Shown: one piece after another, positions 23,294-61,235 of the stretch
Layout of the letters: each line of letters opens with the position of its first letter
Position numbering within the stretch: the first letter of the stretch is position 1
Source: a virus
Length of the DNA: 63,174 nucleotides
IMG/VR virus record: IMGVR_UViG_3300045988_076310
Strand: one strand, 5' to 3'
Notes under the pieces: model-generated
The model's database searches: none
The model's input: the letters and a program-made list of their open reading frames with translations, nothing else
Told to the model about the DNA's origin: nothing
Made by a program: the position numbers and the translations under genes

Positions 23294-23635
23294 ATGGATA
23301 GACTAATCTTAAGAATTGTGGAAAACCAAGCTGTCATCTCAGGAATAACACTCTTTGTAACCTCAGCTTGTGGTGTAGGGGTAGCTTGGCTTAACCACAA
23401 GAGAAATCAGCTTGTAGAGCTCTCAAAGGGTGCTAAACGCTCTAGCTTACGCTCTGAGTATCTTAACATCTACAACTCAACTGAGTTTACTTGGCAAGAG
23501 AAGTGGGATATGACTGAGCCTCTTGTGAAGGAATACTTTAATGAACTTAATGGAAACCATTATATACATGGTTTAAACGAGAAGATGAGAAGACATGTAG
23601 AGGAGGAGATTGCCAATGGTAAAGGTAACAGTTGA
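23294..23635 (+). CDS. Membrane protein (one N-terminal TM segment)
   Basis: Hydrophobic stretch AVISGITLFVTSACGVGVAWL; AGGAG RBS. Confidence 0.55.
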   Translation: MDRLILRIVENQAVISGITLFVTSACGVGVAWLNHKRNQLVELSKGAKRSSLRSEYLNIYNSTEFTWQEKWDMTEPLVKEYFNELNGNHYIHGLNEKMRRHVEEEIANGKGNS

Positions 23636-24938
23636 TGCAAGCTGTTTAAAGGGTCTAGGTGGTGGAGGAGCTACCTATGATGACACAGAAGTAATTAACC
23701 GTATCAAAGCCCTTGAAGGAAGAACAGATAACTTTGTAAAAGAAGTCACTGTGTCTAGAGAAGGGAATAAGGTAAAATTGACTTACACTAGAGTTGATGG
23801 TACATCTAGTGAAGTAGAATTTGATGATAAAGATACTATTTCTATTGCTTATGATGACACTGCTCTTAAAGAAAGAGTAACTGCATTAGAGGCAAAAGAA
23901 GATAAAGACACTGTGTATGATGACACAGAAGTAAAAAATCGACTAACTACTCTTGAAGAGAAGGTTGATAATGACACTATTTATGATGATAGTGCATTAA
24001 AAGCTAGAGTCGAAGCATTGGAAGCTAAACCTGATAAGGATGAACAAACATTATCATTAACTGGTAATGAGCTATCAATTTCTAATGGAAACTCTGTGAC
24101 ACTTCCTGAAGCAACACCTTATAATGATAAGCCTCTAGTAGATAGAATTGCTGTCTTAGAAGCTAGGGAAGACAAAGATACCATCTATGATGATAGTGAC
24201 TTAAAAGAGCAAGTAAATGACTTAGGAAGCTCTATGGCTAGTGCTTTACATGACATTAGTGAGATTAGGGTTAATAATGAGTCAAGACTTAGTGCTCTAG
24301 AAAAGAAAGAAGACAATGATAAGCAAACATTGTCTTTAGAAGGTAATACCTTAAGCATCTCTAATGGTAATTCAGTAGAGCTTCCAGTAAGTGCAGGAAA
24401 AGAATTTGTTGTTACTAGTGATACTGAAGGTGTTACAGTAACTAAAGCTGAAGCAGAAGGCTCCACTACTTACAATGTAAACATGGATAATGCTTTAGAT
24501 AAGTTCTACAAGAAAGCTGAGACTTACACTAAGAATGAAGTAGATAATCTACTAACCAAACAGGAAGATAAAGCTACTGACATTACAGTGTATAGAGGTA
24601 CTTTCACTGATAGAGAGAAGGTTCAAGAAGGTACTTATGACACAGATGTATCTCCTAGAATAACACTTACTTACTCTAGTAGCACAGGTGTAGGTATTCT
24701 GAAAGTAGACTTTAAAATCCTTAAGGCTGTTGGTCAAGGAAATGTTATTGCTAAATTACCTAAAGGTGCACCTAGACCTGCTGAGCTTATTGAGGCTCAA
24801 GTATGGGTAGGAGATGTTTCTACATCTATTTGGGTAGATAAGGGAGCTGATGTAGTTAGAATGTATGCTACAAGTGATGCCAATATCTTTAACAAACGTA
24901 TCATCCTAAACATCCCAGGTATCTTTAAGAAATCTTAA
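23616..24938 (+). CDS. Tail fibre with coiled-coil repeats
   Basis: ATG 23616 sits 7 nt after GAGGAGGAG. At least six repeats of about 22 aa, YDD(T/S)xLKxRVxxLEAKxDKDT. Two copies of DKQTLSLxGNxLSISNGNSVxLP. Confidence 0.7.
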   Translation: MVKVTVDASCLKGLGGGGATYDDTEVINRIKALEGRTDNFVKEVTVSREGNKVKLTYTRVDGTSSEVEFDDKDTISIAYDDTALKERVTALEAKEDKDTVYDDTEVKNRLTTLEEKVDNDTIYDDSALKARVEALEAKPDKDEQTLSLTGNELSISNGNSVTLPEATPYNDKPLVDRIAVLEAREDKDTIYDDSDLKEQVNDLGSSMASALHDISEIRVNNESRLSALEKKEDNDKQTLSLEGNTLSISNGNSVELPVSAGKEFVVTSDTEGVTVTKAEAEGSTTYNVNMDNALDKFYKKAETYTKNEVDNLLTKQEDKATDITVYRGTFTDREKVQEGTYDTDVSPRITLTYSSSTGVGILKVDFKILKAVGQGNVIAKLPKGAPRPAELIEAQVWVGDVSTSIWVDKGADVVRMYATSDANIFNKRIILNIPGIFKKS

Positions 24939-24955: not shown

Positions 24956-25174
24956 ATGTCAGAAGAAAAATGGATGCTTTCAGATAAGCAATATAATATT
25001 CTTAAGAAGGTACTCATCAATGTTGTACCTCCTACGATTGCTCTTATTGCAGGGCTAGGTTCATTGTATAACTTTGATGCTAACCTAATTAATGGAACTA
25101 TTGGACTGTTTGCTACATTCTTTGCAGGAGTTCTAGGAGTTTCTAGTCATAACTACAATGCAGGTAAAGAATGA
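24956..25174 (+). CDS. Holin (putative)
   Basis: 72 aa, two hydrophobic segments (VVPPTIALIAGLGSL and GTIGLFATFFAGVLGV), AAGGAGG RBS. The stop overlaps the endolysin start. Confidence 0.7.
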   Translation: MSEEKWMLSDKQYNILKKVLINVVPPTIALIAGLGSLYNFDANLINGTIGLFATFFAGVLGVSSHNYNAGKE

Positions 25175-27423
25175 ACTATCAAGAATTTAAGAAGAAATGG
25201 TATAATAAGGGTGTAGATGTAGACGGTTACTATTCCTTCCAATGTTGGGACTCCTTTGCACAGTGGTGTAAGGAAAATGGTGTCCCTGTAATCAATACAA
25301 CACCTGTGTCACAAGGTGGCTCAGGTTATGCCAAAGACTTGTGGGAGAAGAAAGCCTCTAATGGTATCCTCAAGTACTTTGATGAAGTACCTATCAATCA
25401 GCTCAAAGAAGGTGATGTAGGTGTCTTCAAAGAGGTGCAAGGATGGACTCCTGTATCTCATGTGGCAATGTTTGATAGAGATATTGATGGTAAGTATGGC
25501 TACTTCTTAAGCCAAAACCAAGGTGGAATTAATGGAGTACACAATCTATGTAGGTTCCCTTATTCTGCACTATACCCTACAGCCTTTAGATTAAAGAAGG
25601 CTAACAATAACCAAGGAGGAAGTAAGACTGTGGCATTACCAGTTAAGAATATTGGTGGAGAAATCTTCTCAGGAGTTATTACAGGATATGATGCTAATAT
25701 CATGAACTGTGATAGCAATAGAAATAAGATTGACAGAATTGTTATTCACCATAACGCTACAACTAATGATGCTGTGGCTAGAAGTACATGGTATGTATCT
25801 TCAGGTCATGGTACTTCAGCTCACTATCAAGTAACACCTGATAAAATTTGGGGTTGTGTTGGTGAGAACTATGTTGCTTATCATGCAGGAAACTATCCAG
25901 TAAATCAACGCTCTATTGGTATTGAGCACTTAAACAACACAGGAGCTCCTACATGGACTATTGCTGAGGAAACTTATAGAAACTCAGCTAGACTAATTAG
26001 AGATATTTGTGAACGCTATAATATTCCTATTGACAGACAGCACATCATCAAGCATGGTGAAGTATCATCTACAGCGTGTTTACCTGTTGATAATACTGAA
26101 CTCCTCACTAAACAAGGTTGGGTAAGCTTAAAAGATATCCAAGTAGGTGATGAGATTGCTACATACAGATTAGATGATGGAAGCATTATCTTTGACACTG
26201 TGTATAATAAAGTAGAGCCTCACATTAAAGATACTTGGTTCTTTAGAGATGTTGAGGTAACTGCTGACCATAGAATGTTGTGGAAGTCTCAAGCAAGTAA
26301 AACCTATAAGATTAGTGAAGCTAAGGATATGTTCTCTAACAAAGGTACTCTAGTATTCCCAAATGCAGGAAACTATGAAGCAGAAGGACTCCCTGTGTCA
26401 GATACTTTCCTACAGTATCTTGTAGCTGTACAAGCTGATGGTCATTATATGAAGGATAATAGAACCATTAACAAAAACCCTTTTGGTATTGAGTTCCACA
26501 TTAAAAAGGATAGAAAAGTAGAATTACTTACTGATATCCTTGATGAGTTGGGGAAAGAATATACATTTAGAGAGAAAAAAGATGGTACTTATTCATTCCG
26601 TATTTATGGAGCTGAAGAGGTTGAAGAAGTAGAGCAATATCTAGACAATAAAAAATTCTCATGGAAGTTCCTTGAGATGTCAGAAAGACAAGCTGAACTC
26701 TTCCTTGACTATATCTTAGACTTTGATGGTTGTAGAGCAGGTAATGATTACTCTTCAACACTCTCTCAAAATATAGATGTGGTACAAGCTATTGCTTCTC
26801 TCCATAATAAAGGTAGTAGAACATCTACAGAAGGTAATCGACTATACTTTACAAACCCTACTAGAAGTGTAACATCTACTGGTACTTTAGCTAAGTCTGC
26901 ACAAAGAAGACAACAAAGGCTGGTTTCATGTGTATCTGTTACATCAGGTTTAATCTTAATCCGTCAACATGGAAGAACTACTGTTGTAGGTAACTGTCCT
27001 GGTGGTATTGACATTGATAGACTTGTAGCTATGGCTAAAGGTGCTGATTATGTTACTCCTGCTAAGGCTACTCCTAGACCATCTGCACCAGGTAAGATGC
27101 AACATGCTTATCGAGTAGATGACTTGAAATTTGTGAATGGTTTGTGGCAGGTTTACTGTCAAGAACTTGCTCCTGCTGAGTTTAACTGGACTGATAATGG
27201 TATTGCTGTAGAGGATATCATTATTACTAATAAAGATGGTGCTAGACTTCCTGACCAAATGACTCATGTAGGTGACTACTTTGTGTTTGACCAAACTGCT
27301 ACAGCCGATACAGGCTATGGAGCTATGGGTTCAGGCGGATGGTATTGGAGAAAATTCAGACTGAGAACTTCAGGTGAAATTTGGTTATCAGCTTGGAACT
27401 TAAACCACTTATTGTTTGGTTAA
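25171..27423 (+). CDS. Endolysin: CHAP + amidase_2 (interrupted by an intein) + SH3b-like wall-binding domain
   Basis: CHAP: YYSFQCWDSF and VSHVAMF. Amidase_2: IVIHHNATTN, SAHYQV, AYHAGN, IGIEH, and H-x7-C restored across the intein as KHGEVSSTA|CPGG. The C-terminal VNGLWQV...DNGIAVEDI...WYWRKF region is SH3b-like. Confidence 0.9.
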   Translation: MNYQEFKKKWYNKGVDVDGYYSFQCWDSFAQWCKENGVPVINTTPVSQGGSGYAKDLWEKKASNGILKYFDEVPINQLKEGDVGVFKEVQGWTPVSHVAMFDRDIDGKYGYFLSQNQGGINGVHNLCRFPYSALYPTAFRLKKANNNQGGSKTVALPVKNIGGEIFSGVITGYDANIMNCDSNRNKIDRIVIHHNATTNDAVARSTWYVSSGHGTSAHYQVTPDKIWGCVGENYVAYHAGNYPVNQRSIGIEHLNNTGAPTWTIAEETYRNSARLIRDICERYNIPIDRQHIIKHGEVSSTACLPVDNTELLTKQGWVSLKDIQVGDEIATYRLDDGSIIFDTVYNKVEPHIKDTWFFRDVEVTADHRMLWKSQASKTYKISEAKDMFSNKGTLVFPNAGNYEAEGLPVSDTFLQYLVAVQADGHYMKDNRTINKNPFGIEFHIKKDRKVELLTDILDELGKEYTFREKKDGTYSFRIYGAEEVEEVEQYLDNKKFSWKFLEMSERQAELFLDYILDFDGCRAGNDYSSTLSQNIDVVQAIASLHNKGSRTSTEGNRLYFTNPTRSVTSTGTLAKSAQRRQQRLVSCVSVTSGLILIRQHGRTTVVGNCPGGIDIDRLVAMAKGADYVTPAKATPRPSAPGKMQHAYRVDDLKFVNGLWQVYCQELAPAEFNWTDNGIAVEDIIITNKDGARLPDQMTHVGDYFVFDQTATADTGYGAMGSGGWYWRKFRLRTSGEIWLSAWNLNHLLFG
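26077..26994 (+). mobile_element. Intein with LAGLIDADG homing-endonuclease domain (306 aa) inside the endolysin
   Basis: Begins with Cys1 (CLPVDNTELLTKQGWVSLKDIQVGDEI). Block B is TADH. Two LAGLIDADG-type motifs, YLVAVQADGHY and LDYILDFDGC. Ends ...TTVVGN followed by the +1 Cys of CPGG. Confidence 0.85.
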
Positions 27424-27424
27424 G

Positions 27425-27457
27425 GGGATGGGGTTAATCCCCTCCCTATTTTTATTT
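27425..27457 (+). terminator. Rho-independent terminator after the endolysin
   Basis: GC-rich hairpin GGGATGGGG-ttaat-CCCCTCCC followed by TATTTTTATTT. Confidence 0.6.
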
Positions 27458-27466
27458 GGAGGAACT

Positions 27467-28342
27467 ATGGAAGATATCTGTAAACACAAGGATTGCTCCT
27501 GTGAGAACGTAGGCTTGGGGGATTGTGTTAAACTACAAGAACTAAATGACCTACAAATTAGACCAAAGATGAGGGCTATTCTTAAGGCTGAGTGGTGTAA
27601 CTTACCTGAAGCTATTAGAAGAGCTTTCTATGGTGTTTGGTGTGTATTAAAGAATATTATTAACCAATTATGTTATATTCTATCTAAGCTTGAGTGCTTA
27701 GAGGCTAAAGTATCCAATCTGTGTGAAGTTGCTAAGTGTCAGGATGAAAGAATTTCAGGGCTTATTGACCACATCAAAGGTAAAATGCTTGAGAATGTAT
27801 CCTTTAGTATGAAGTCTAGTGGTTCTAATGTAGACTATAATGGTCAACAGACTTACACTAAGATTAGTACACAAAATGATGGTTCATTTACATTGACTTG
27901 GAACATGGTTGATGAGAATGAAGTAGGTAAGGGTACTATTACTGGTAAAGTTGCTCACATGTACACCATGAAAGATGATGGTACTATTGATGCACATATT
28001 AGTAGAGTAACTTTCAATGCTATTAACTATACTGCATCACCAGGAGCTAGAAGCTATGGAACTACTGCAAGATACTCTATCATTGATAACAATGGTAAAG
28101 AGATTTTCGGAAGAGACTATGACCCAGGTTTCAGCTTCTCAGACAAGTCACCTGACCTATCAGTAGGAAAATCAGTTACACTACAGCCTCAAGGAGGTAA
28201 CACAGGAGATGTTCTTCTGTTTAGAACTGTGGACTATTGGGTTAATGCTTCCACTACTGGTGAAGTAAGAGCAGACTATGTAAATAATAACTCTCCTCTT
28301 CCTAAGGCACAAGGATGTGTCATTGACTGTGACAACTGTTAG
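27467..28342 (+). CDS. Cys-rich N-terminal module protein 1 (fibre/RBP-like)
   Basis: ATG 27467 follows GGAGG; the ORF track starts it at 27416, inside the terminator. N-terminus reads CKHKDCSCENVGLGDC...WCNL...VWCVLKNIINQLCYIL...C...C...C. C-terminus ends CVIDCDNC. Confidence 0.65.
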   Translation: MEDICKHKDCSCENVGLGDCVKLQELNDLQIRPKMRAILKAEWCNLPEAIRRAFYGVWCVLKNIINQLCYILSKLECLEAKVSNLCEVAKCQDERISGLIDHIKGKMLENVSFSMKSSGSNVDYNGQQTYTKISTQNDGSFTLTWNMVDENEVGKGTITGKVAHMYTMKDDGTIDAHISRVTFNAINYTASPGARSYGTTARYSIIDNNGKEIFGRDYDPGFSFSDKSPDLSVGKSVTLQPQGGNTGDVLLFRTVDYWVNASTTGEVRADYVNNNSPLPKAQGCVIDCDNC

Positions 28343-28350
28343 GAGGTAAC

Positions 28351-29595
28351 ATGCTAGATTACTGCCCTAATTGCAGATGTAAAATAAAGTTCTACAAAGC
28401 TCATGAATGTGATAAGATGAAGCATGAGCTTGCTGATAGTATTAAACTAGCAGGTGATGTTATTGCATCCAGTGATGAGTGTAAACTCAAGGAGAATACC
28501 ACACATGGTATCTTTCGTATATGGTGTGTGATTAAGAACATTATTGAGATTATCTGTGATATAATTAAACGTATGAAGTGCTTACAGCGTAAGGCTCAGA
28601 GAGTATGTGAAGCTCAGCACTGTATTGATAGAAGGGTTGCAGAAGTCAATAGGATTATTGGTGTTTACAACTCTGACCAAGAGAGTCTTCCTTCAACTGA
28701 GCAAGCTGATTGGGAAGCTCTTAAGCTAAGAACTGACCGTGAGTATGCTAATGCTCTATCATTGTATAAGGCTAGAAAGAAAGTCTATGATGATAAGGTA
28801 AAAGAATATGATGTGAAGCTTATCCAGTATAACACTATGAAGGCTGAGTATGAAAGACTCAAGCGTGAATATGATGCAGGGCAAGGAGCTCAACAAGGTA
28901 GTCAAGGTCAGTGGCAAGAGGCTTGGGGAAGTTTTGCTAAGACAGGAGTACCTTATGATATTGTCATGGGTGGTTCTCCTAACCCCTCAATTCATGGATT
29001 AGACCTTACTGAAGCTCATAGACATAACTTTGGTAGAGGTGTGTTCTTTAGGAGTCTTAATGATGCAGGAACTTCTGTGGAGATGAAATTAAACCTTATT
29101 GGTTATACCTATGAGGGTAATGGAAGAGCTGTTCCAGGAGGCTATTATGTCCAGTATGGAGGTACCTATGACTGGTATCTAGACTACTACATCTCAACAG
29201 ATGGAGGTAACACCTATCATCCTGTGGAGTCTAATATCCTCTTAGCTAGACATGCTGATACACAGAACCTAGCCTATGGTCCTAACTGGCATCTATCAAG
29301 AATTGATTGGGTCAAACAGATTACACTACCTGCTAACTTCACTCACCTTAAGACTGAGGTACGTGGAGATAATCCAGGTGAACGACATCAAAATGTCTAC
29401 ACAAGAGAGCAGATTGTGAGAAAACCTTTCCCTCCATTCACAGAAAAAGAGCCTAAAAGACCTGAACCCTTCACAGAAAAGGAACCTAAGAAGTCACCAT
29501 TACCTCCTAAGCCTGAGAAGAAGGTTGAAAACATTCCTCTCATTGGTAGTGGATGTGACCTTATGGACTGTAAGTTTGACTGCTTTATAGATTAG
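28351..29595 (+). CDS. Cys-rich N-terminal module protein 2 (fibre/RBP-like)
   Basis: CPNCRCKIKFYKAHEC...IWCVIKNIIEIICDII...C...C...C, then coiled coil, a duplicated FTEKEPK(R/K) motif, and a CDLMDCKFDC end. Confidence 0.65.
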   Translation: MLDYCPNCRCKIKFYKAHECDKMKHELADSIKLAGDVIASSDECKLKENTTHGIFRIWCVIKNIIEIICDIIKRMKCLQRKAQRVCEAQHCIDRRVAEVNRIIGVYNSDQESLPSTEQADWEALKLRTDREYANALSLYKARKKVYDDKVKEYDVKLIQYNTMKAEYERLKREYDAGQGAQQGSQGQWQEAWGSFAKTGVPYDIVMGGSPNPSIHGLDLTEAHRHNFGRGVFFRSLNDAGTSVEMKLNLIGYTYEGNGRAVPGGYYVQYGGTYDWYLDYYISTDGGNTYHPVESNILLARHADTQNLAYGPNWHLSRIDWVKQITLPANFTHLKTEVRGDNPGERHQNVYTREQIVRKPFPPFTEKEPKRPEPFTEKEPKKSPLPPKPEKKVENIPLIGSGCDLMDCKFDCFID

Positions 29596-61164: not shown

Positions 61165-61235
61165 GCCCCTGTAGCCAAGTGATAAGGCAACTGGTTGCAA
61201 CCCAGTGAGCGTAGGTTTAAATCCTATCAGGGGCT
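61165..61235 (+). tRNA. tRNA-Cys (anticodon GCA)
   Basis: Hand-folded cloverleaf. Acceptor GCCCCTG/CAGGGGC; anticodon stem ACTGG/CCAGT with loop TTGCAAC; T arm GTAGG-TTTAAAT-CCTAT; 4-nt variable loop; discriminator T. Confidence 0.8.

Follow-up and report, generated by a model that had tools for sequence, protein, structure and literature searches.

We report here that the endolysin gene of IMG/VR virus record IMGVR_UViG_3300045988_076310, a 63,174-nucleotide (nt) stretch of viral DNA that was analysed at its full length and is referred to below as the window, is very probably interrupted by a protein-splicing element. We put at roughly 85% the probability that nt 26077-26994 (plus strand, as for the lysin gene, its parts and the holin gene) encode a functional class-1 intein with a double-LAGLIDADG homing endonuclease, which lies in frame before the zinc-ligand Cys of the Amidase_2 domain and is primarily a selfish element. 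A first-pass annotation, made from the letters alone, had proposed a LAGLIDADG intein at this place, and homology, fold and conserved blocks support that identification. The mechanism appears to be the ordinary one of a class-1 LAGLIDADG intein belonging to a known phage family; it is the host protein and the insertion sites that appear to be unreported.

The lysin precursor is encoded by an open reading frame (ORF) at 25171-27423 and comprises 750 amino acids (aa), identical to NCBI nr DAV50445.1, a record titled 'MAG TPA: N acetylmuramoyl L alanine amidase endolysin' in which intein annotation is absent. It begins with an uninterrupted CHAP domain (approximately aa 1-145, 25171-25605) containing the catalytic motif Q24-C25 together with H97, all three residues being near-invariant among homologues, and continues with the N-terminal part of the Amidase_2 domain (approximately aa 160-302, 25648-26076), which contains H193 and H295 (predicted zinc ligands), the catalytic E252, and T301, and with which the N-extein ends at Ala302. 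After the insert (aa 303-608; 918 nt, 306 codons) follows the C-extein (aa 609-750, 26995-27420), made up of the last amidase helix (CPGGIDIDRLVAMAK), a linker and a ZoocinA_TRD cell-wall-targeting domain (aa 646-749, 27106-27417; Pfam PF16775, E 1e-33; PDB 2ls0 and 8tw1). The computed masses (84.6 kDa for the precursor, 49.7 kDa for the spliced lysin and 35.0 kDa for the intein) agree with those of the first-pass annotation, as do the coordinates and residues given there for the ORF and the 306-aa insert.

Homologue profiles, rather than single sequences, were required to match the CHAP and amidase domains to PDB entries: phmmer searches of the PDB with the CHAP region or with a single amidase sequence returned nothing, or AmpDh2 only, and the Pfam CHAP model PF05257 gave no match to this lysin at E<=1. 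By profile, the CHAP domain matched PlyPy (5udm, E 4e-26), the CHAP domain of LysK (E 1.5e-13) and the LysK and LysGH15 CHAP structures 4csh and 4olk (E ~1e-13), and a Foldseek comparison of its fold recovered the same two structures. Pfam PF01510 (Amidase_2) matched aa 184-303 of the precursor with 86 bits against a cut-off of 26, and the protein spliced in silico with 92 bits. The domain order read from the letters alone (CHAP, amidase_2, SH3b-like) was right for the two catalytic domains but not for the C-terminal one, where ZoocinA_TRD takes the place of SH3b.

The insert lies in frame between Ala302 and Cys609, flanked by ...IIKHGEVSSTA and CPGG, and splits the amidase signature H-x7-C-P exactly before its Cys, as had been described. 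This +1 residue, Cys609 (26995-26997; C303 of the mature protein), would serve both as splice nucleophile and as the third zinc ligand of the amidase. In an alignment by the amidase profile, H295-x7-C609-P corresponds to 'LHMEFVPTACPH' of the LysGH15 amidase-2 domain (4ols; ..VPTACPH) and to 'HKYWSGKECP' of XlyA (3hmb), so that Cys609 falls on C332 of LysGH15 and on the Cys of XlyA, in keeping with the earlier suggestion that the +1 nucleophile is itself a metal ligand. LysGH15 binds its zinc through H214, H324 and C332 (H-x7-C) and has E282 as catalytic residue, and Ala mutants of the zinc ligands abolish the activity of the amidase domain (PMC4022735). In the window protein the zinc triad and the Glu of Amidase_2 are all present, with H193, E252, H295, T301 and C609 invariant among 39 homologues, and the triad is contiguous only once the protein is spliced. 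Since the +1 Cys is predicted to be the third zinc ligand, we expect the amidase to have no activity before splicing. When joined, the flanks rebuild an Amidase_2 fold: a model of the spliced protein is confident around the junction (predicted local distance difference test score, pLDDT, ~87-93) and its fold matches the LysCS, XlyA, PlyL, PlyG and LysGH15 amidases by Foldseek, while natural 444-aa alleles present the same joined sequence.

These intein-less alleles came from a protein search for lysin homologues that covered 5.8 billion proteins, and include lysins of 444-445 aa (P0008, P0009, P0012 and P0013) that share 88-92% identity with the window protein and lack exactly these 306 residues. 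Across the site the amidase of Streptococcus phage Javan253 reads ..HKEASATACPGGIDVDKL.. (..SATA/CPGG..; here and in the motifs below a slash marks the insertion point), and the junction peptide predicted after splicing of the window protein is ..GEVSSTACPGGIDIDR... At the DNA level, the alignments of three sister contigs of ~60 kb (L005, L006 and L008) stop at window nt 26060-26079 and start again at 26995, with the 918 nt absent exactly in each. When the two flanks of the window are joined, 65 of 72 nt agree with the empty sites of L006 and L008. These two sites are of the type ..ACA (GCG or GGA) TGT (CCT or CCA) (GGT or GGA) GGT.., and the divergent L005 type reads ..ACT CAA TGT CCT GCG GGA.. 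The clean 306-aa insertion anticipated in the first-pass annotation is what all of these alignments give, and among the homologues we found none that keeps the segment without its splice-junction residues, which are conserved.

Motifs, relatives and fold of the insert

Conservation was counted in a 47-member alignment of the amidase-resident intein family, of which 46 members are full-length. Splicing block A (CLPVDNTELLTKQ, 26077-26115) opens with Cys303, the Cys1 of the intein (N-terminus CLPVDNTELL), found in 46/46 full-length members, and its E8, L10 and T11 are invariant; block B (aa 364-367, 26260-26271) reads T-A-D-H, a TxxH motif whose T62 and H65 are invariant in 47/47. The homing endonuclease domain, approximately intein aa 96-262 (26362-26862), carries the two LAGLIDADG motifs YLVAVQADGH (aa 416-425, 26416-26445, with Asp121) and LDYILDFDGC (aa 512-521, 26704-26733, with Asp217), and D121, G122, D217 and G218 each occur in all but one of the 47 members. 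Blocks F and G (VSCVSVTSGLILIRQH...VVGN, 26923-26994) contain the block-F Cys587 (intein C285), the penultimate Gly607 and the terminal Asn608; residues V283, C285, V288, R296, Q297, G305 and N306 are invariant in the whole alignment, and the +1 Cys and the Pro that follows it are present in all 46 members with residues in those columns. The intein motifs listed in the first-pass annotation (Cys1, TADH, two LAGLIDADG motifs, and a terminal Asn followed by Cys609) are thus all in place, and so is the penultimate Gly that it had noted instead of His. Since this Gly is invariant across the family, we regard it as a family trait and not a defect.

By blastp the insert aligns end to end with an insert in the NAMPT of Staphylococcus phage Stab23 (E 5e-32; the record notes a Hint domain), with the PolA of Escherichia phage nieznany (E 6e-17) and with the PolA of Lactococcus phage KSY1, which is annotated as 'intein-containing' (E 3e-15). 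Taken with the exact joining of the flanks in intein-less homologues, these matches go well past what chance would give. Among GenBank phages the intein family occurs in 261 records, residing in NAMPT, RNR, PolA, primase-helicase, nucleotidyltransferase and phosphoesterase genes, and no lysin host appeared among 60 rows sampled from these records. In Enterocloster phage CB457P2, which had been considered as a possible lysin host of the family, the match falls in an 1100-aa hypothetical protein. The inteins of KSY1 PolA, of Staphylococcus Twortvirinae NAMPT/RNR and of nieznany PolA belong to the same family as the window element (27-31% identity end to end, with E-values down to that for Stab23) and share its length class, Cys1, TxxH, two LAGLIDADG motifs, V-x-C-V block F, and a G-N end followed by Cys or Thr. 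Their hosts, however, are replication or nucleotide-metabolism enzymes, whereas here the host is a peptidoglycan amidase and the insertion lies at a metal-ligand Cys.

An AlphaFold (AF2) model of the intein, built with the alignment of 47 members, reached a pLDDT of 97 and a predicted template modelling (TM) score of 0.93. Its best PDB matches in Foldseek were TliVMA, PhoVMA, PI-PfuI, PI-SceI and PI-TkoII (E 1e-12 to 7e-6), with HINT halves flanking the endonuclease in one uninterrupted reading frame, and the endonuclease core resembled I-DmoI (TM ~0.6 normalised to the target, E 2e-5). By sequence, phmmer with the insert recovered nothing from the PDB beyond a weak match to I-MsoI (E 0.05). 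PI-SceI (VMA1), PI-PfuI, TliVMA and PhoVMA have the same architecture of a HINT domain with an inserted double-LAGLIDADG endonuclease (E 1e-12 to 1e-8; TM 0.58-0.67 normalised to the query), but share 9-13% identity with the window element, which has 306 aa against their 361-454 and is without a penultimate His. In its class and its penultimate Gly the element can be likened to the class-1 intein of mycobacteriophage Bethlehem gp51 (RDF), whose host protein differs; that intein splices efficiently, and changing its Gly to His slowed splicing (Kelley et al. 2016, PMC5050341).

Insertion sites, allele states and mobility

The same intein family occupies the same H-x7/C-P site in 63 of 120 lysin homologues, the architectures of which are very diverse (CW_7, GBS_Bsp-like, SH3_3, SH3_5, PG_binding_1 and phage tail lysozyme). 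When 1.84 billion representatives of 50% identity clusters were scanned exhaustively, 2663 clusters matched at E<=1e-3, of which 107 reached E<=1e-30. H-x7/C-P flanks were present in 76 of the best 150 clusters, and 73 of these 76 match the amidase profile after in-silico splicing; at least 76 clusters therefore have the intein at the same amidase site. The earlier remark that inteins were not known to be common in phage lysins holds for the open-access literature, where we found no natural case, but not for sequence data, in which they are not rare. In a scan of GTDB, amidase-resident members were found only in metagenome-assembled genomes (MAGs) from gut or rumen (Clostridia, Muribaculaceae, Atopobiaceae and Saccharibacteria), and none were found in its isolate genomes. 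One amidase-resident member from a Paludibacteraceae MAG (L012 1501-2421) seemingly misses Cys1 (..HYDVTGKLP/LPIDKTELL..), and could be a decayed intein, one with a variant mechanism, or a sequence error.

Other positions of the amidase are occupied as well. Same-family inteins lie after the first zinc-ligand His (..SIH/..) in P0090 and P0094 (both aa ~31-346) and in P0234, after the second His of ..IHH/.. (L014 1501-2418), at AWH/CGN (P0038 and P0242) and just before AWHAGN (P0282), and some proteins, such as P0038 (aa 73-387 and 454-765), have two inteins in one amidase domain. In a further set of family members from the representative library (P0216, P0218, P0225, P0228, P0236, P0240, P0244 and P0245) the flanks read ..GG.AWGGH../C...GN/CPG.. 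and the host domain is unmatched by the amidase profile; this domain may represent another cell-wall enzyme family that was invaded before a C-P motif.

Sister phages of the window carry a second, unrelated LAGLIDADG intein of 297 aa, located exactly at the catalytic Cys of the CHAP domain (..FQ/CLTGEY...HLHHN/CWDSF..) and possessing the canonical His-Asn end (P0007, P0010, P0018, P0030, P0053 and P0134; L006 3073-3963). We found no significant similarity between the CHAP-site and the amidase-site inteins. In the window the CHAP site is empty, its Cys25 codon lying at 25243-25245 where the DNA alignment against L006 breaks (25231/25243), and no second member of either intein family was found among all window ORFs. 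P0134, a protein of 1048 aa, carries both inteins, so that this phage group contains each of the four allele states (none, either one, or both), as proteins of 444, 741, 750 and 1048 aa.

The intein is under purifying selection. Ratios of nonsynonymous to synonymous substitution rates (dN/dS), calculated by the Nei-Gojobori method for the window against three relatives, were 0.07-0.11 for the whole intein and 0.06-0.07 for its endonuclease part, similar to the 0.09-0.12 of the amidase extein. Compared with the lysin P0011, whose CHAP domain and C-terminus are unrelated, the window has a dS of 0.39 in the intein and 1.41 in the adjoining amidase, and across the family the inteins are 41-64% identical to that of the window while the host amidase domains are 24-40% identical. 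Because the inteins have diverged less than the amidases that hold them, the history of the intein is decoupled from that of the host gene, as expected for homing, and this comparison of sequences points to horizontal movement of the intein.

Round the amidase insertion point, the L005-type empty allele (..HSECSQTQ/CPAGIDIDKL..) is 63-73% identical to the window, compared with ~90% elsewhere (L005 3841-3960 versus window 26011-26076 plus 26995-27048). This trough is suggestive, though only that, of a co-conversion tract or of a target-site variant resistant to the endonuclease. A similar dip in identity was seen in L006 beside the site of the CHAP intein.

Splicing, lysis and alternative readings

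We propose that splicing takes the standard class-1 route. It would begin with an N-S acyl shift at Cys303 of the 84.6-kDa precursor, followed by trans-thioesterification through attack by Cys609; cyclisation of Asn608 would then free the 35-kDa intein, and an S-N shift would leave a native Ala302-Cys peptide bond in a 49.7-kDa lysin with its zinc site (H193, H295 and Cys) restored. During co-infection the free intein would cut intein-less alleles at the DNA encoding ..SSTA/CPGG.. and would be copied in by repair. The element would in this manner be primarily selfish, having settled at a conserved active-site motif.

Several points weigh against a functional class-1 intein. Splicing, endonuclease cleavage and its target, homing and the effect on lysis are all things that we infer. 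The hidden Markov model scan suggested in the first-pass annotation recovered Amidase_2, as given above, but not the elements of the insert: the Pfam models for Hint, Intein_splicing and LAGLIDADG all stayed below threshold (Hint_2 at 13.6 bits against a cut-off of 28.4, with weak sub-threshold matches to LAGLIDADG_1 and LAGLIDADG_3), and an NCBIfam scan gave no match. The penultimate His typical of class-1 inteins is missing. In block F, a position that is usually Asp is Cys in 47/47 members of the amidase-resident family; the related inteins of PolA and NAMPT have the same Cys, and in every case it is accompanied by a Gly-Asn end. With an invariant Cys in place of that Asp, the details of the splicing chemistry may depart from the textbook class-1 pathway. 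The case for lysis without splicing, which is made below, is moreover argued from LysGH15 and not from this protein.

On the other side, the curated intein models are also sub-threshold in three relatives, showing that they are insensitive to this intein family, and phage class-1 inteins are often without a penultimate His (Kelley et al. 2016, PMC5050341). Class 3 was considered on account of the block-F Cys and was rejected. Inteins of that class have no position-1 nucleophile and possess a Trp(B:12)-Cys(F:4)-Thr(G:5) triplet (PMC5050341), whereas here Cys1 is kept, B:12 is Met369, G:5 is Val606, and the Trp and Thr of the triplet are absent.

By analogy with LysGH15, lysis by this phage is probably not strictly dependent on splicing, because the CHAP and binding domains are intact in the precursor and the zinc-ligand mutants of LysGH15, itself a CHAP and amidase_2 lysin, retain full lytic activity (PMC4022735). 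The first-pass proposal of a post-translational step on the lysis enzyme would therefore hold for the amidase domain, but need not hold for lysis by the lysin as a whole, and on these same grounds the regulatory role attached to it is unsupported.

In a broader reading, which is speculative and which we regard as unlikely, CHAP/Amidase_2 endolysins would constitute a large unrecognised intein niche, with inteins placed on every catalytic or metal-binding motif. Lysins with all of their catalytic domains interrupted, such as the double-intein P0134 and the amidase-only lysins, would have to splice before lysis, and this step would possibly be rate-setting and maybe responsive to zinc or redox, given the zinc-ligand role of the +1 nucleophile. 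The endonuclease would also be a weapon that cuts the lysis gene of intein-less co-infecting phages. A role of the intein as a conditional switch co-opted to tune lysis (through redox, zinc or slow kinetics), with active lysin appearing only late or in certain intracellular states, is likewise unlikely. Such a switch could draw on a +1 nucleophile that is a zinc ligand with two more zinc ligands just upstream, and on three conserved Cys at the splicing centre (C1, the block-F Cys and the +1 Cys); penultimate-residue variation has also been argued to tune the splicing rate in phages (Kelley et al., PMC5050341). Moreover, the amidase is the only catalytic domain in many family members, and some relatives would need splicing for any activity, P0134 having inteins at both catalytic cysteines. 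In this phage, however, CHAP is uninterrupted, the coexistence of intein-less, single-intein and double-intein alleles in near-identical phages is the mark of a dispensable selfish element, and the purifying selection on the endonuclease is as for an actively homing parasite. Furthermore, the timing of lysis is normally set by the holin and not by the availability of the lysin.

We consider it very improbable that the insert is decayed and non-splicing, such that the 750-aa protein works as made, with lysis by CHAP only and a dead amidase. The missing penultimate His and the sub-threshold curated models would fit such a state, as would the lytic activity of LysGH15 with its amidase zinc site destroyed (PMC4022735), but the Bethlehem intein splices well with a penultimate Gly (PMC5050341). 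In addition, the G-N end is common to inteins of essential genes (PolA and RNR), the splicing residues are all invariant across the 47 members in hosts down to 24% identity, dN/dS is ~0.1 in all parts of the intein, and the same intein sits in lysins where the amidase is the sole catalytic domain.

Group I introns do occur in lysin genes of Gram-positive phages, e.g. Staphylococcus phage K lysK and the lysins of Streptococcus thermophilus phages, and are likewise mobile, endonuclease-associated and self-splicing, but they are removed from RNA whereas the window element would be removed from protein. That the insert is no intein at all, but a domain insertion, a group I intron or endonuclease gene read through, or an assembly chimera, might be suggested by these introns and by the unannotated database record, yet is next to impossible given a single open frame with HINT halves round the endonuclease, a PI-SceI-type fold over the full length, boundaries exact to the amino acid, and a 750-752-aa architecture that recurs in independent assemblies from many samples, in clusters of 4-209 sequences.

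Novelty and genomic setting

The open-access full-text literature yielded no account of an intein occurring naturally in an endolysin, which is not proof of absence, and the large intein surveys consulted do not mention lysins or amidases. Among 224 mycobacteriophage endolysins none is interrupted by an intron or intein (Payne and Hatfull, PMC3314691), and known inteins cluster in replication, repair, nucleotide-metabolism and phage packaging proteins (PMC4760082, PMC5050341). With LysGH15, LysK, XlyA and PlyL the spliced window lysin shares the CHAP QC motif and/or the Amidase_2 H...H-x7-C zinc site, as well as the fold; in contrast to it these lysins are without an intein, and the window lysin ends in a zoocin-A-type domain, not SH3b. 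Precomputed Pfam lists of the lysin matches contain cell-wall-enzyme and binding families only, with the exception of one Hint entry (PF01079, in P0038). Since intein models are sub-threshold or absent, routine annotation and lysin mining in effect overlook the precursors, and the lysin catalogues mined for enzybiotics hold intein precursors that are likely to misbehave on expression.

If splicing takes place as proposed, a peptidoglycan hydrolase would join the list of extein hosts, and the active-site motifs of lysins, namely the CHAP Cys and the zinc ligands of Amidase_2, would be recurrent homing targets, with a natural phage population in four allele states available for studying homing dynamics. 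A natural intein at a zinc-ligand Cys could also be a scaffold for conditionally activated lysins.

The 63,174-nt window looks like a whole phage genome of ~63 kb, and encodes a terminase, portal, tail protein, DNA polymerase and primase-helicase. Its large terminase is only 25% identical to those of Lactococcus P087-like phages. Against 50,697 GenBank phage records, megablast with the lysin gene gave no match, and by tblastn no record of this set covers >=80% of the lysin, its architecture thus occurring in no cultured phage there. Directly upstream of the lysin gene lies a holin gene (24956-25174; 72 aa; PHROG phrog_881 holin, E 2.5e-18), the two forming a holin-endolysin cassette in which the holin stop codon and the lysin start overlap (ATGA); holin homologues of the sister contigs match PF16938 (Phage_holin_Dp1). 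Our guess is that the host of the phage is a Streptococcus, because the closest cultured relatives of the lysin are Streptococcus phage lysins (Javan253) and the binding domain is of the zoocin-A type.

Just upstream of the holin gene, the ORF at 23610-24938 contains the repeat units ..DKDT(I/V)YDD..LK.RV.ALEAK.. and ..QTLSL.GN.LSISNGNSV.LP.., and its product is probably a fibre or receptor-binding protein. Just downstream of the lysin gene, two adjoining genes (27416-28342 and 28351-29595) have similar Cys-rich N-terminal segments (..W/IWCV.KNII..C.I..K..CL..K....CE..) and C-termini that are also Cys-rich, and homologues of the product of the first match Pfam BspA_v. The long block of same-strand genes running on past the lysis cassette is unusual. 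The sole tRNA of the window is a tRNA-Cys (GCA) at 61165-61235.

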